64,000 nucleotides of DNA. Source: an uncultured Microthrixaceae bacterium (GTDB taxonomy: Bacteria; Actinomycetota; Acidimicrobiia; Acidimicrobiales; DATDAH01). Below, one piece after another: positions 1 to 41,462 of this stretch. The DNA lies in contig CAZYPY010000007.1 in NCBI GenBank assembly GCA_964649545.1, forward strand, positions 4,698 to 68,697. Direction: 5' to 3'. The translations under genes and the position numbers were made by a program. Every line of letters starts with the position of its first letter. Position 1 is the first letter of the stretch. The notes beneath the pieces are model-generated. The model saw only the letters and a program-made list of their open reading frames with translations, ran no database searches and was not told the origin of the DNA.

Positions 1-52
1 GACCGGTCGACGGCCAGACCTCCACGGGTTCGCCCGACGAGCCGACCTGGCA

Positions 53-541
53 TCACGTGACGCCGCCGCCCGTCGCCGCTGCGAGCGGTCCGGGGCCCGG
101 CGCCCACGCGATCCCGTGGACGCCGCCCTCGATCGGCCCGACCGAGCCGAGGACGTCACCGTCGTCGGTCAGGGTGAGGAGCGACCACGCCGTGCCGACC
201 GCGAGGAGGTCGCCGGTCGGGGACCAGGTCAACGCGGTGATCGGCGCCTCGACGGCGACGGTGCGATGGGCGTCGCCGGTCACGATGGCGACGTCGCCCG
301 TATCCGTGCCCACCGCCAGGCGGGTTCCCGTGGGCGACCACGCCAGTGCCGAGACGGCGCCGCGACACCTCGTCGGCGGGGTGGTCGGCCGGAGGGCCTC
401 GCCGTCGACGAGGGCCACCTCCCCGTTGACGGCGCCGACCGCGATCAGCGCCCCGTCCGGGCGCCACTGGAGGTGCTCGACGGCGTCGCTCAGAACCTGC
501 GCTCTAGACACGGCAGGCGAGCAACGATGCGGCCAGGTCAT
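53..541 (-). CDS. WD40/beta-propeller repeat protein; stops at an in-frame TGA (53-55) but the frame stays open to the window edge
   Basis: Repeats such as VEHLQWRPDGALIAVG, VSALAWSPTGTRLAVG, ITALTWSPTGDLLAVG and VHGIAWAPG are WD40-type. Start is ATG 541 or GTG 511. It follows the COG0523-like gene on the same strand. Confidence 0.7.
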   Translation of the reverse strand: MTWPHRCSPAVSRAQVLSDAVEHLQWRPDGALIAVGAVNGEVALVDGEALRPTTPPTRCRGAVSALAWSPTGTRLAVGTDTGDVAIVTGDAHRTVAVEAPITALTWSPTGDLLAVGTAWSLLTLTDDGDVLGSVGPIEGGVHGIAWAPGPGPLAAATGGGVT

Positions 542-1499
542 CCAGTCCGAGGTCTCGACCGGCGATGCGCAACCTCGAGTGGCGGGGCGCTCCGTGCGCC
601 CACGGCGGACCCGGCTCGTGGCGGACGGCCGTTCGACAGCCACTCAGGTGGAGGGGACCGTCGCGGTCGGCGAGCGCGAGGACGGCCTCGATGCGCAGCA
701 GACGCGCTCCGGCTGCTCCGTGCAGTGCGTGGAGCCACTCCTCGAGTCGGTCGGGGTCGAGCAGACCGTCGACCGCGAAGGTCATCGAGCCCGTCCCGCT
801 CCGACCACCGGCCGGATGGGCGCCCGGCGCGCCGTACGGCGTGTGGAGCCGGGCGAGTCGTGAGGGGGTCGACGCGGGTGACCACGACGCGAGCTCGAGC
901 ACGTCGGCGAGCCGCGGACTCGTCGACGCGTCGACCCAGGCGAGCGGGTTGAGGCGTTGGATGGCATCGGCGACCCTCTGGATCCCGTGGGGCGTGAGGA
1001 GGGCACCTCGGGAGATCCACACAGCGTCGGCGAGCATGGCCGCGTCCGCGGGTCGATCGGACGGCCATGGCGACGCGGTGCTGGCGGCTGCCGTCGTCGC
1101 CGCGGGGCCGTCGATGGCCAGGAGCACCGCGTTGAGCCGGACGAGACGCGCCAAGTCGGGGTCGTCGAGCAGGGTGACGACGGGTGTCGCCGGATCGGTG
1201 CCGGGGAGCTCGAGCACGACGATGTGGGCGGGCGGGCGCCGACGTCGGGCGATCCGACCGAGGGTGTCCACCAGGTCGATGCGTTGCGCACAGCAGGCGC
1301 AGCCCTGCGTGCGGAAGCCGATCGACTCGTGGGTCGTCACCGTCTCCAGACCGGCGAACGTGGTCTGCGGCGCCCCTCCGGGCACGACGACCACGACCTC
1401 GCCGCCGGCGCTGGCCGCGAGGTGGCGGGCGAGCTCGTCGGCCCCGCTGTCGGTCCAGCCGTGGACGAAGGTGACGGCCGGTCGTCGCGGCTCGGTCAC
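504..1499 (-). CDS. COG0523/CobW-family protein with degenerate P-loop (putative GTPase-dead zinc metallochaperone paralogue)
   Basis: GCACC (CxCC) motif, ELPG at the ExxG position and a CobW_C-like C-terminus (LDPDRLEEWLHAL...LLRIEAVL). The Walker A position reads GWTDSGADEL instead of GxxGxGKT. The GTG start overlaps the rpmE2 stop (GTGA). Confidence 0.75.
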   Translation of the reverse strand: MTEPRRPAVTFVHGWTDSGADELARHLAASAGGEVVVVVPGGAPQTTFAGLETVTTHESIGFRTQGCACCAQRIDLVDTLGRIARRRRPPAHIVVLELPGTDPATPVVTLLDDPDLARLVRLNAVLLAIDGPAATTAAASTASPWPSDRPADAAMLADAVWISRGALLTPHGIQRVADAIQRLNPLAWVDASTSPRLADVLELASWSPASTPSRLARLHTPYGAPGAHPAGGRSGTGSMTFAVDGLLDPDRLEEWLHALHGAAGARLLRIEAVLALADRDGPLHLSGCRTAVRHEPGPPWAHGAPRHSRLRIAGRDLGLDDLAASLLACRV

Positions 1500-1744
1500 G
1501 TGCGCCGTTTGCCGTAGCGACGCTCGAAGCGGTCGACTCGACCCGCGGTGTCCACGATCTTCATCTTCCCGGTGAAGAACGGGTGGCTGGCGGCGCTGAT
1601 GTCGACGGTCACGAGCGGATACTCGACGCCGTCGATCTCGCAGGTCCGGTCGGTGGTGACCGTGGATCGCGTCAGGTAGTCGACCCCCGCGCTCGTGTCG
1701 CGGAACACCACCGGACGGTACGCAGGGTGGATCCCCTCTTTCAC
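1496..1744 (-). CDS. rpmE2: 50S ribosomal protein L31 type B (zinc-independent paralogue)
   Basis: [16 protein letters not shown]...[31 protein letters not shown]; no CxC/CxxC zinc ribbon. Confidence 0.95.
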
Positions 1745-1905
1745 CGCTCCTCCTTGAACGCGACGTGGCGGCGGACCTTGGGGTCGTACTTGCGCAGCTC
1801 CAGACGCTCGCGCTGGTTCTGCTTGTTCTTGGTGGTGACGTAGGTGAACCCCGTGCCGGCGGTGGAGCGGAGCTTCACCAGCACGCGCTTGTCGCTCTTG
1901 GCCAT
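1741..1905 (-). CDS. rpmG: 50S ribosomal protein L33, zinc-free type (54 aa; absent from the ORF track)
   Basis: Hand translation: [54 protein letters not shown], with no Cys. Its ATG overlaps the L28 stop (TGATG) and its stop overlaps the L31 start (GTGA). Confidence 0.95.
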
Positions 1906-2141
1906 CAGACCTTGATCCCTCGTGCTCGGATGGCCGCGACCACCGATTCGATGCCGTTGCGGTTCACGGTCTTGATGGCACGCGTCGACAGGGTCAACCG
2001 CACCCAGCGCCGTTCGGAGGGCAGCCAGAAGCGCTGGGTCTGGATGTTGGGGTTGAACCGGCGGCGGGTGGTTCGGTGCGAGTGCGACACGTGGTTGCCG
2101 AACCCGGGTTTCGCTCCCGTCAGCATGCAGATCCGTGACAC
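1905..2141 (-). CDS. rpmB: 50S ribosomal protein L28, zinc-free type
   Basis: [62 protein letters not shown] at 2141 with GAAGGAGGG RBS upstream; only one Cys. Confidence 0.95.
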
Positions 2142-2156
2142 CGAGCCCTCCTTCGT

Positions 2157-2175
2157 GGAATGAGAATCATTCCTG
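2157..2175. promoter_or_regulatory. Putative Zur box between divergent rpmB and cobW
   Basis: Perfect inverted repeat GGAATGA-GAA-TCATTCC (2157-2173). The core TGAGAATCATT resembles the actinobacterial Zur consensus TGAAAATnATTTTCA, and both flanking units are typical Zur targets. Confidence 0.75.
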
Positions 2176-2226
2176 CTAGTGTGGCTGGTCTCGCCCGCAC
2201 CTGCAACTCGCCTCCGGAGGCCGACC

Positions 2227-3459
2227 GTGGATCCCTTGACCGACCAGCGACTGCCCGTCACCGTCCTGTCGGGGTTCCTCGGGGCCGGCAAGACCACGCT
2301 GCTGAACCAGGTGCTGGCGAACCGTGAAGGCCGGCGGGTGGCGGTGATCGTCAACGACATGAGTGAGGTCAACATCGACGCGTCCTTGGTGGCAGGCGGC
2401 TCGGCCGCCCTGCACCGCACGGACGAGCGCCTGGTGGAGATGACCAACGGGTGCATCTGCTGCACGTTGCGCGACGACCTCCTCGAGCAGGTCGCCGAGC
2501 TCGCCCGGGAGCAGCGGTTCGACTACCTGCTCATCGAGTCGACCGGCATCAGCGAGCCGATGCCGGTGGCCGCGACGTTCCTCTTCGAAGACGTCGACGG
2601 TGCCAGCCTGGCCTCGGTGGCCCGACTGGACACGATGGTGACGGTGGTGGACGCCTCCCGATTCCTGGACCATTTCGACGAACTCGTCGATCTGGCCGAG
2701 CTCGGGGTGGCCCGCGACGACGAGGACGATCGCAGCGTGGTCGAGCTCCTGGTCGACCAGGTGGAGTTCGCAGACGTGCTCGTGGTGTCCAAGCCCGATC
2801 TCGTCGACGAGGACGACCTCGCCCGGGTGGTCGGCCTCGTCCGCCACCTCAACCCGCGCGCCCGGGTCCAGATCGTCGAGCGAGGCGAGCTGCCCCTCTG
2901 CGAGCTGTTGGACACGGGGCGGTTCGATCCCGACGAGGCCTCACTCGCGCCCGGCTGGGTGCGTGAGCTCAACGGCGAGCACGTCCCCGAGACCGACGAG
3001 TACGGCATCGGGTCGTTCGTCTACCGGCAGCGCTGGCCGTTCCACCCGGAGCGGCTCGTGGAGGCGCTCGAGACCGACTGGCCCGGCGTCCTGCGCTCGA
3101 AGGGCTTCCTCTGGCTCGCGACGCGCCCCGATGTCCAAGCCCTCTGGAGCCAGGCCGGTCTGTCGGTGCAGCTCGAGCCGTTGGCTCCCTGGTTCGCGTC
3201 GCTGCCGGAGTCCGAATGGGATCTCGACCCTGACGAGCGGGCCGAGCTCGCCGAGCGCTGGGACCCGCTGGTGGGGGATCGCCAGACCGAGCTCGTCTTC
3301 ATCGGGATCGACATGGACGAGGCGGACCTGCGGGCCCGGCTCGACCCCTGTGTCCTCACCGCCGCCGAGGTCGAGGCCGGGATGGAAGCCTGGGCCACCT
3401 ACCCCGACCCCCTGCCGGCGTGGGACCTGCTCTGCGACCTCGACGACGACGAGGGGTGA
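2227..3459 (+). CDS. COG0523 G3E-family GTPase, zinc metallochaperone (YciC/ZigA-like)
   Basis: GFLGAGKTT Walker A, GCICC, ESTG, SKPD and CobW_C (PFHPERL...[11 protein letters not shown]). GTG 2227 follows a GGAGG RBS. Confidence 0.93.
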
Positions 3460-3474
3460 GGTCAGGCGCTCCGA

Positions 3475-3765
3475 TCAGTGCTCGTCCCAGTGGCCGTCGT
3501 GGGCGGCGTGGCGGTGGCCGTCGTGGAGGTAGTCGACGTGATCGCCATGGGCCACGGACTCGTGGCCGCAGTCGGGGCCGTGGGTGTGGTCGTGGCCCGC
3601 GTGCTCGAGGTGGGGCAGGTCGCACTCGTCCCAGTGGCCGGCGTGCTCGTGGTGGGCGTGGCCCTCGTGGATGTAGTCCACGTGGCCCTCGTGGTCGACG
3701 GCGGCGTGGCCGCAGCCGGCACCGTGGGTGTGGGTGTGGTCGGCGTGGGTCGTGCAGGTGCTCAC
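3475..3765 (-). CDS. Small His-rich, internally duplicated putative metal-binding protein (96 aa)
   Basis: 27 His and 4 Cys. Two copies of HxHGxxCGHxxVxHxxHVDYxHxGHxHxxHxGHWDE. The start overlaps the stop of the upstream ArsR gene; an AGAGGA RBS is present. Confidence 0.85.
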   Translation of the reverse strand: MSTCTTHADHTHTHGAGCGHAAVDHEGHVDYIHEGHAHHEHAGHWDECDLPHLEHAGHDHTHGPDCGHESVAHGDHVDYLHDGHRHAAHDGHWDEH

Positions 3766-4073
3766 CGGTGGCTCCTCTCGTTGGCGTGGGCGATGGCGTC
3801 GAGCGCGATGTGGACGACGTGCTCGTCGGCGATCGAGTAGGCGATCTCTCGGCCCCGACGGCGTCCCGCCAGCACCCCGGCCGTGCGTAGGACCCGGAGG
3901 TGCTGCGACACGAGGGGCTGGGCGACACCGAGGGACTCGACGAGGTCGTGGACGCAGCGCTCACCGTCCTGGACCTCGAGCACGATGGCCAGCCGGAGGG
4001 GATGGGCGAACGCCTTCAGGAGCTCGCTGGCCGCCTCGAGACCGGTCACATCAACAGATGCTAATAGATGCAT
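3762..4073 (-). CDS. smtB: ArsR/SmtB-family repressor with alpha5 zinc site (SmtB/CzrA/Rv2358-like)
   Basis: wHTH (AFAHPLRLAIV...SQHLRVLR) and C-terminal DEH-x10-H-x2-E (DEHVVHIALDAIAHANE). Start is ATG 4073 or GTG 4049. Confidence 0.85.
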   Translation of the reverse strand: MHLLASVDVTGLEAASELLKAFAHPLRLAIVLEVQDGERCVHDLVESLGVAQPLVSQHLRVLRTAGVLAGRRRGREIAYSIADEHVVHIALDAIAHANERSHR

Positions 4074-40106: not shown

Positions 40107-40205
40107 GGATCGCGAACCTCGCCCCGAGCCTAACCCCGGGGCTCGCCACCCGAACCGGCGTGCCGTCGAGGGATATCCTGCGCCGACGTCGAGCGGAGGG
40201 GCGCG

Positions 40206-41462
40206 GTGGGGTTCTTCAAGCGGACCGTCGAGCAGGTGCGAGGCGAGCGGCCGCCGTTCGGCACGGCGGCGTTCGACCCGGCGGACGTCGACGACGCCCG
40301 GCGGGGCCGTCCCGACCGCTCACTCGAGGGCTTCGCCGCGGCGACCGGGCTCGCCTTCAAGGGCACCGAGCAGGCCGGGCAGTTCGTGTCCACGTTGCCG
40401 ACGTGGCCCGACTACGTCTTCAACGTCTGCCGTGGCACCCTCCCGGGGGGCCGTTACGGCATGGTCGACCACGAGCTCTACGAGGTGCGGGCCCACAACG
40501 GCTCGGTGGCCGCAGCCGGGCGGTTCCACGACCTCCACGTCCCGCCCCGTGTCGGGACCTTGGAGGTGGGCGGCATCGAGCAGGGCTCGAAGAACGAGCC
40601 GTTCTGGGGCAACGCCGCGTGGTTGCCGACCACGAGCGTCCACGTGCGCGCACCCGAGACCAACCGGGTCCCCGTGCTGCGCTTCGTGCGCTCGAGCTCG
40701 CACGGCCTCGAGGGGGACAACGGCCTCGACGGGTACGGCGCCCCGGGGTACCGCACCCTCGGCCCCGACCTCCCACCCGAGACCCTTGCGCCGCTGGCCA
40801 CGGCCGCCGCGCCGTGGTTGGCCGGCCGCGTCGACGCGCACACCGAGGTGCGGGTGCGCTTCGGGATCGTGGCGGTGACCGTGAACGGCTACCGGGTCGA
40901 CGAAGCCGACCTCCGCCACCTCGTGCTGACCGGTGAGAGCATCGCCGATGCCCTGGCCGCGCTGACCCCGCCGGCGCTCCCGACCTCGATCGACGCGCCT
41001 GGTCCGCCGGTGGGCGCCGGTTCGGGGGCCGGGCCCGGCTTCCCCGAGCCGCACCCCACCCTGGTGCCCCTGTACGCGGCACAGGCGTCGCACTGGGGCC
41101 TGCACCAGGAGGACCCCGGCCACGTGCTCGCGCTGTTGCCGCGCTGCCCGATCCCCGGCCGGCCCTCGGGCGTGCTCTTCGGCGTGCCCCCGGGGTGCAC
41201 GGCACCTGCCCGGGTGGTGTGGTTCGAGCAGGGTGGCCGCACCGCGAGCAGCGCCCGCGGCGGCCTCATCGCGCCGGCGCCGCGGGGCGCGAGCACCCCC
41301 CTCGGCGGGGTGCTCCACGCGGAGACGGGCGTCTACACCGAGGTGGTCGACGGCGTCGCCCACGCCTGGCGCAAGCAGCGCTCGTTCGGCGAGCTCGAGG
41401 CGGGCCTCCTGCTGGAGAGCGCCGTAGCGACGCTGCACAGCACGGGTCTCGCCGCCATCTGA
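40206..41462 (+). CDS. Hypothetical protein (418 aa), no recognised domain
   Basis: Long ORF with GC3-biased codons and normal amino-acid composition; fills the gap between neighbouring genes. Confidence 0.7.
   Translation: MGFFKRTVEQVRGERPPFGTAAFDPADVDDARRGRPDRSLEGFAAATGLAFKGTEQAGQFVSTLPTWPDYVFNVCRGTLPGGRYGMVDHELYEVRAHNGSVAAAGRFHDLHVPPRVGTLEVGGIEQGSKNEPFWGNAAWLPTTSVHVRAPETNRVPVLRFVRSSSHGLEGDNGLDGYGAPGYRTLGPDLPPETLAPLATAAAPWLAGRVDAHTEVRVRFGIVAVTVNGYRVDEADLRHLVLTGESIADALAALTPPALPTSIDAPGPPVGAGSGAGPGFPEPHPTLVPLYAAQASHWGLHQEDPGHVLALLPRCPIPGRPSGVLFGVPPGCTAPARVVWFEQGGRTASSARGGLIAPAPRGASTPLGGVLHAETGVYTEVVDGVAHAWRKQRSFGELEAGLLLESAVATLHSTGLAAI

Follow-up and report, generated by a model that had tools for sequence, protein, structure and literature searches.

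COG0523 proteins have been described as GTP-driven metallochaperones; what, then, might a protein of this superfamily do if it lacks the GTPase motifs and is encoded in an operon of ribosomal protein genes? The question is raised by a gene in a 64,000-nucleotide stretch of DNA (hereinafter the window) from an uncultured actinobacterium of the Microthrixaceae (Acidimicrobiia; GenBank assembly GCA_964649545.1, contig CAZYPY010000007.1, positions 4,698–68,697), which codes for a COG0523-like pseudo-GTPase (hereinafter the target; Table 1). A first-pass annotation of the window, made from the sequence alone, had pointed to this gene and proposed that it might be a GTPase-dead zinc sensor or adaptor of independent origin from the mycobacterial protein Mrf. 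We present evidence that the target belongs to a distinct family of pseudo-GTPases, maintained by selection and paired with a WD40 β-propeller protein; its identity and evolutionary placement are well supported, and for its function we advance a hypothesis.

By both sequence and fold the target is a member of the COG0523/CobW superfamily. It matches the Pfam models cobW (PF02492; 32.1 bits, cut-off 20.7) and CobW_C (PF07683; 48.8 bits, cut-off 22), and its AF2 model has two domains (pLDDT 93.1, pTM 0.92), with three YjiA entries as the top solved fold matches (Foldseek, E 9e-16 to 2e-14, TM 0.63–0.69). A sequence search of the PDB likewise returned YjiA as the sole match, and no Mrf structure. 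Escherichia coli YjiA (PDB 1NIJ/4IXM) is thus the best solved structural match, with equal size and two-domain layout and a sequence profile score of 31 bits. It carries GxxGxGKT, NKxD and RxKG, which the target lacks, and is active as a GTPase, and the two share only about 15% identity. An intact ZigA-like paralogue, which begins 680 bp from the target (the first-pass annotation had put it about 700 bp away) and has all its motifs, provides the most direct comparison. In place of the paralogue's Walker A (G1; GxxGxGK[ST]) sequence GFLGAGKTT the target has GWTDSGADE, where the lysine is changed to alanine, the threonine to aspartate and the fourth glycine to aspartate; in place of the G4 ([NST]KxD) sequence SKPD it has ISRG (SRGA in the 150-sequence alignment). 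The CxCC motif is present as GCACC and is invariant across the target's own clade. The retention of CxCC and the loss of Walker A and G4 were part of the earlier description and hold up in this alignment. The state of G3 (ExxG) is alignment-dependent: E-L-P-G of the target stands opposite E-S-T-G in a smaller alignment and is shifted by one column in a 150-sequence MAFFT alignment. A further change, absent from that description, is the loss of RxKG in the C-terminal domain (CTD), where the target has RIEA in the 150-sequence alignment. According to a 2026 preprint RxKG is the only invariant CTD motif, supplying an arginine finger and a catalytic lysine, and is needed for GTPase activity. The target and the ZigA-like paralogue belong to the same superfamily, share CxCC and flank the same intergenic region with a predicted Zur (zinc uptake regulator) site; they are only 24% identical, the target is without the long ZigA CTD insert, and it scores 17.1 bits on the ZigA model NF038288, under the 600-bit cut-off (the value for the paralogue is given in Table 1). 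The underlying sequence is secure, in that window positions 1–2300 are reproduced with zero differences by three independent DNA metagenome assemblies from different studies.

The family to which the target belongs became apparent only through exhaustive searching: word-indexed searches recovered 5 relatives with the single protein and 15 with a 50-sequence alignment, and it took an exhaustive profile search against 1.84 billion representative sequences to show it (78 matches at < 1e-30). A metagenome scan with a narrower alignment found 7 loci, and a scan of GTDB species genomes found one true family locus, in an Acidimicrobiia metagenome-assembled genome (MAG) that is the one named source in a family otherwise seen almost only in metagenomes. 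In a neighbor-joining tree (150 sequences, 320 columns, 100 bootstraps) the target falls in a clade of 68 sequences (bootstrap 72) of about 310–350 residues. Intact motifs are distributed very differently between this family and canonical COG0523 proteins: Walker A in 13/68 vs 75/76, CxCC in 51/68 vs 71/76, G3 in 16/68 (it is lost in P0004, for example) vs 76/76, G4 NKxD in 0/68 vs 66/76, and RxKG in 0/68 vs 74/76, with the arginine of the last kept in 65 of the 68. The family also has higher isoelectric points (5.1–6.9 vs 4.2–4.6). These alignments indicate that the family-wide defining losses are G4 and the catalytic lysine of RxKG, with P-loop loss added in most branches, including the target's. 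We found this family described nowhere in the literature that we searched. Hence, what is new is the family itself and its breach of the reported RxKG invariance; the occurrence of Mrf with zinc-free (C-) ribosomal protein genes and the pairing of COG0523 with WD40 genes were each already known separately.

Several lines of evidence establish the target as a folded and selectively maintained pseudo-GTPase. Four relatives at 92, 63, 56 and 41% identity have an intact frame, an altered P-loop of the form GW[TLA]D[SG]GA, no NKxD, and a retained GC[AP]CC. The same degenerate motifs recur in every relative down to about 40% identity and can therefore be ascribed neither to chance nor to a sequencing artefact. 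The ratio dN/dS is 0.43 against the 92%-identical strain (locus L009) and 0.31 against the 63% relative (L003). Strain-specific decay is accordingly ruled out by the shared degenerate motifs, the intact frames of the relatives and the dN/dS values of 0.3–0.4. The first-pass annotation had expected its proposal to fail if close orthologues retained GxxGxGKT: down to 40% identity none does, and it is among distant members, at about 30–34% identity, that GWxGxGK[ST] is still found.

The second defining feature of the family is its genomic partner. In 13/13 distinct loci with downstream flank available, spanning subclades both with and without the P-loop, a homologous WD40 propeller gene (about 305–355 codons) directly follows the family gene, often with a stop/start overlap. 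The first-pass annotation had noted the WD40 neighbor correctly and gave it too little weight: the neighbor is an invariant partner, and the pair is a widespread two-gene module rather than a lone paralogue. The WD40 partners are homologous to one another (22–52% identity) and strongly acidic (pI 4.5–5.1), and the ribosomal proteins of these operons have a pI of 9.3–12. Pairwise distances of the pseudo-GTPases and their partners co-vary (r = 0.86, Mantel p = 2e-4), a correlation to which common organismal history contributes. A search of the WD40 partners for conserved Cys or His residues that could form a metal site found none: the invariant columns are just Gly, Ala, Trp and the initiator Met, and there is therefore no obvious metal site. 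In the window itself, the partner gene contains an in-frame TGA at positions 53–55 (minus strand); the corresponding codon is TGG in the 92%-identical strain and encodes tryptophan in more distant relatives (AWC or LWC), and conservation of the frame continues beyond it (EPVEVWPSTG). The three independent DNA assemblies and one RNA-seq contig all show this TGA without any difference, so that the propeller gene of this widespread strain has a real nonsense or split-gene allele; selenocysteine is unlikely at this codon, which stands opposite tryptophan, not cysteine, in the relatives.

WD40 pairing is no general trait of the nearest canonical relatives: the outgroups P0104 and P0139 are unpaired and adjoin Amidohydro_2 and phosphotriesterase genes. 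A probable source of the module is offered by loci L013 and L016, each of which contains a second pair (L013b and L016b) of a fully canonical COG0523 protein and a WD40 protein. These canonical proteins share 60–63% identity with P0035 and P0057, which among canonical sequences match the family profile best, and over the G domain the L013b protein has 45% identity to an algal CBWD2. They recall the COG0523 subfamily 5, comprising relatives of eukaryotic ZNG1/CBWD, for which Zur-regulated znuCBA-COG0523-5-WD40 operons were described in alpha-proteobacteria (Haas et al., 2009). As in those operons, a Zur site (predicted in our case) precedes a COG0523-type gene and, directly after it, a WD40 gene, and the canonical pairs share loci with the family and are its best-scoring canonical relatives. 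The two groups differ in that subfamily 5 keeps all G motifs and RxKG, is very acidic (pI about 4.5) and lies in znuCBA operons, whereas the target family is near-neutral, has neither G4 nor the RxKG lysine and occurs in ribosomal protein operons. The target itself is not a canonical subfamily-5 sequence, given its own clade and the loss of G4 and RxKG. From these comparisons, the family most likely descends from a duplicated Zur-regulated canonical subfamily-5/WD40 pair that still coexists with it in some genomes.

The operon setting of the target fits the description in the first-pass annotation of a gene inside a ribosomal protein operon and beside a WD40 gene. All loci examined in the target's own clade have the gene order L28-L33-L31-target-WD40, with translational coupling of the target to L31; in the window, the GTG start codon of the target and the stop codon of the type-B L31 gene share the 4-nt sequence GTGA. 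Among the other subclades the pair mostly, though not invariably, has L33 or L31 beside it. The window's L28, L33 and L31 carry 1, 0 and 1 cysteines, respectively, and are therefore the C- forms. A Zur-box-like palindrome lies 16 nt upstream of the L28 start, the one match in the window as against 0.01 expected. Read on the plus strand as TGAGAATCATTCC, the palindrome agrees with the consensus for mycobacterial Zur, GA[AT]AAYNNTT[TG][TC]C, except for a G at the [AT] position, which is also found in the MSMEG_1122 site. Related Zur-like boxes occur upstream of the module in loci L003, L009, L012, L013, L016, L018 and L019, and FUR-family genes adjoin it in L007, L013 and L022.

Three further associations accompany the module. 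A second Zur-like palindrome, AGAATGATTCCTATTCT, lies just past the WD40 gene in L009 (3752–3768; also in L010, L011 and L012), upstream of a 75-codon open reading frame (ORF) and a Pyr_redox/NAD_binding_9 gene, which suggests that it marks a further Zur-controlled unit. In the subclade of P0006, a Zur-like box is followed by a DUF1826 gene (L013 4177–4794; also in L014, L015, L026 and L027) and then by L33 and the pseudo-GTPase-WD40 pair; DUF1826 is listed by Haas et al. together with Zur-regulated COG0523 clusters. A gene for an iron-type alcohol dehydrogenase (Fe-ADH) adjoins the pair in L003, L018 and L023, which belong to three different subclades, and its product could be a zinc-sparing isozyme or a client candidate.

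Table 1. Features of the window discussed in the text, with positions counted from its first nucleotide.
Feature	Position	Strand	Basis and remarks
Partner WD40 β-propeller gene, N-terminal part	1..541	(-)	Start ATG 541 or GTG 511; continues past window start
Target, COG0523-like pseudo-GTPase gene, 331 aa	504..1499	(-)	Pfam, motif alignments, AF2 model
Type-B (zinc-free) ribosomal protein L31	1496..1744	(-)	NF002462, 125 bits; one Cys; stop overlaps target start
Ribosomal protein L33, Cys-free (C-) form	1741..1905	(-)	Family models, Cys count
Ribosomal protein L28, 78 aa, first operon gene	1905..2141	(-)	Family models; one Cys; ribosome-binding site GAAGGAGG upstream
Zur-box-like 7-3-7 palindrome GGAATGA-TTC-TCATTCC	2157..2173		Between divergent operons
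Intact ZigA-like COG0523 GTPase	2179..3459	(+), divergent	ZigA model NF038288, 577.6 bits (cut-off 600); true start may be later than 2179
His-rich protein, 96 aa	3475..3765	(-)	No Pfam/NCBIfam match
ArsR/SmtB metalloregulator gene	3762..4073	(-)	Overlaps His-rich protein gene
tRNA-Leu(CAA)	40183..40278	(+)	Sole tRNA of the window

Beyond the ZigA-like gene the window codes for a His-rich protein with an internal duplication (H.DY.H[ED]GH.H..H.GHWDE, twice), the gene for which overlaps that of an ArsR/SmtB regulator; the same pairing of a small ORF with an HTH_5 gene adjoins the module in L013 and L016. The His-rich protein may be a regulated metal-buffering or storage protein. In a sister strain (L009/L010; 95–97% nucleotide identity) two deletions break the ZigA-like gene, removing its P-loop/CxCC region and most of its CTD, and the His-rich/ArsR pair is deleted too; the pseudo-GTPase and its WD40 partner are intact (compared intervals: window 2215–2499, 2844–3469 and 3673–4063). 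A contig of a related strain from an RNA run shows a similar 630-bp skip (2839 to 3470). An Rfam scan of the 64-kb window returned no family at its gathering score. The exact sequence of window positions 1–2300 occurs, at a word share of 0.92–1.00, in 20 wastewater, activated-sludge and anaerobic-digester metagenomes dated 2018–2025, which makes the carrier a sludge actinobacterium that is common and distributed worldwide; the locus has a GC content of about 65–78%, and its nearest named relative is an Acidimicrobiia MAG.

How might such a protein work? We tentatively favor, with somewhat less than even confidence, a reading in which this distinct WD40-paired pseudo-GTPase family, derived from a subfamily-5/WD40 duplication, acts as a nucleotide-independent zinc-sensing adaptor on remodelled ribosomes. 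On zinc starvation Zur would be released, and translation of the target would be coupled to that of the C- ribosomal proteins and the propeller. The missing P-loop lysine and threonine, NKxD and RxKG lysine predict that there is no GTP cycle, and Zn(II) occupancy of CxCC, rather than nucleotide state, would set the conformation of the target. The acidic propeller would be a docking platform, and the two proteins would together act on the remodelled ribosome, possibly by escorting or exchanging the basic C- forms of L28, L33 and L31, or by recruiting a factor to C- ribosomes; a Mrf-like job would thus have been reached by convergence. As an analogy only, the eukaryotic WD40 proteins Rrb1 and Sqt1 are dedicated ribosomal protein chaperones. 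A stronger form of the proposal, which we consider unlikely as it stands, is that a second independent nucleotide-free COG0523 derivative and its acidic WD40 protein make up an obligate two-protein zinc switch that acts directly on the C- ribosomes of non-mycobacterial actinobacteria, either chaperoning or exchanging C- L28, L33 and L31 or triggering hibernation.

Several points weigh against this adaptor reading. For this family we infer zinc binding, the absence of nucleotide binding, the complex with the propeller and contact with the ribosome. CxCC is missing from 17/68 members, which counts against universal zinc sensing. The deep branching that joins the family to subfamily 5 has neighbor-joining bootstraps of 0–13. 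Through the premature TGA in the WD40 partner, the module may be impaired in the very strain under study. Contigs from activated-sludge RNA-seq match window positions 1–669 and 764–1554 exactly and span the L31/target and target/WD40 junctions; as these contigs carry no strand information, are of low depth and in one case extend across the divergent promoter, they may reflect DNA carry-over. Lastly, some COG0523/WD40 pairs have no ribosomal genes beside them (L016a, L022 and the proteobacterial znuCBA-COG0523-5-WD40 operons), and the propeller may therefore serve general zinc handling.

The last of these points leads to the main rival, a non-ribosomal role in zinc handling inherited from the subfamily-5/WD40 pair. 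Here, the target would serve some client other than the ribosome, either as a zinc chaperone or buffer that works without nucleotides or as a regulatory subunit, with the WD40 protein as client adaptor and the ribosomal genes as neighbors merely through a shared Zur regulon. The association of the ancestral-type pair with znuABC and FUR rather than ribosomal genes would be natural on this account, as would the family pairs L016a and L022 with no adjacent ribosomal genes, the recurrence of the Fe-ADH gene and the retention of CxCC in 51 of the 68 members. We regard it as possible but somewhat doubtful, in view of the translational coupling to L31 in every locus of the target's clade and the presence of L33 or L31 beside the pair in most other subclades, and because no one client-enzyme candidate is consistently adjacent.

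A more remote alternative is that the target remains an NTPase or a nucleotide-binding switch with altered specificity, e.g., for ATP or for an alarmone such as ZTP, bound in a non-canonical pocket. The 13 members that keep a perfect GxxGxGK[ST] despite the loss of NKxD lend this some substance, since loss of G4 by itself is compatible with a changed base specificity, and for ZagA both binding and hydrolysis of ZTP have been reported (Chem Rev text). In the target, however, the lysine and threonine of the P-loop are now alanine and aspartate and one of its glycines is an aspartate, and the catalytic lysine of RxKG is missing in all 68 members, which makes such an activity improbable.

That the target is instead a functionless, decaying gene, a pseudogenising duplicate of its ZigA-like neighbor, might be argued from the loss of every catalytic motif, from a dN/dS that exceeds that of the adjoining ribosomal genes and from the nonsense codon in this strain's WD40 gene, but it is very hard to reconcile with an open frame and a degenerate GWxDxGA motif both kept from 92% to 40% identity, conserved synteny and start/stop overlaps, the confident AF2 model, a family made up of dozens of 50%-identity clusters, a divergence from the ZigA-like gene that rules out recent duplication, and a sister strain in which that gene is broken and the target and WD40 genes are not.

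There remains the relation to Mrf. The background given in the first-pass annotation, namely that Mrf has a degenerate P-loop and is encoded near zinc-free ribosomal genes, agrees with the literature: Rv0106 lacks both GTPase motifs and carries CXSC (Haas et al., 2009), Mrf lacks a G-domain signature and Mpy is recruited without GTP (Li et al., 2020), and MSMEG_6069 is located in a Zur-regulated C- ribosomal protein operon. Mrf (Rv0106/MSMEG_6069) thus resembles the target in that it is a two-domain COG0523-like protein that lacks functional GTPase motifs, its gene accompanies those of zinc-free ribosomal proteins under Zur control (the target's Zur site being predicted), and an intact ZigA-like paralogue coexists with it, as in Mycobacterium smegmatis. 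The sequences place the two apart. The NCBIfam MRF equivalog model NF047431 (cut-off 375) does not match the target even at E<=10, gives 28.9 bits with the family member P0004, and recovers the genuine Mrf P0168 with 559.5 bits. Against a hidden Markov model (HMM) of its own family, from which its 12 nearest relatives were left out, the target scores 294 bits, as compared with 141 against canonical COG0523 and 7 against Mrf. The neighbor-joining tree groups Mrf (bootstrap 100) with the window's ZigA-like paralogue (bootstrap 65), in keeping with the already published ZigA/Mrf affinity (Chem Rev text), and places them away from the 68-member clade, so that the target lies outside the Mrf clade; a phylogeny that included Mrf was among the checks proposed in the first-pass annotation. 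Mrf is also longer (about 398 aa) and ZigA-derived, has CxSC or CxAC for CxCC and RxRG where the target family has RxE[AG], and its P-loop is shortened by deletion, in contrast to the substituted P-loop of the target. No WD40 partner has been described for Mrf, whereas a WD40 gene always follows the target, and the target's operon encodes 50S proteins only, with no S14 or S18 genes. Taken together, the model, the HMM scores and the tree bear out the suggestion of a separate derivation and rule out Mrf orthology. The notion that the target is a diverged orthologue of Mrf, and in the same way brings a long hibernation factor (Mpy/HPF) to C- ribosomes, thus has the general setting in its favor (a COG0523-like protein without GTPase motifs in a Zur-controlled C- operon beside L31B, L28 and L33, with a ZigA-like paralogue nearby) and is very unlikely in the face of these differences. 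The manner of the loss differs between Mrf and the target family, and the GTPase motifs were therefore lost independently in two lineages.

Against the view of COG0523 proteins as GTP-driven metallochaperones, we thus have a family in which all members examined lack G4 and the RxKG lysine and most lack the P-loop, yet which is under purifying selection and tied to a WD40 partner. Two independent losses of GTPase function, in Mrf and in the target family, in the same genomic setting suggest that alternative ribosomes recurrently need a nucleotide-independent CobW-like factor. If the zinc-switch reading is true, a GTPase-dead CobW-like factor beside alternative ribosomal proteins would be a convergent general solution, not a mycobacterial peculiarity. 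The family also offers a tractable handle on the role of the WD40 partner of Zur-regulated COG0523 proteins, which has been a question since 2009. As its carriers are abundant in activated sludge, the control of zinc-limited growth in wastewater actinobacteria may be affected.

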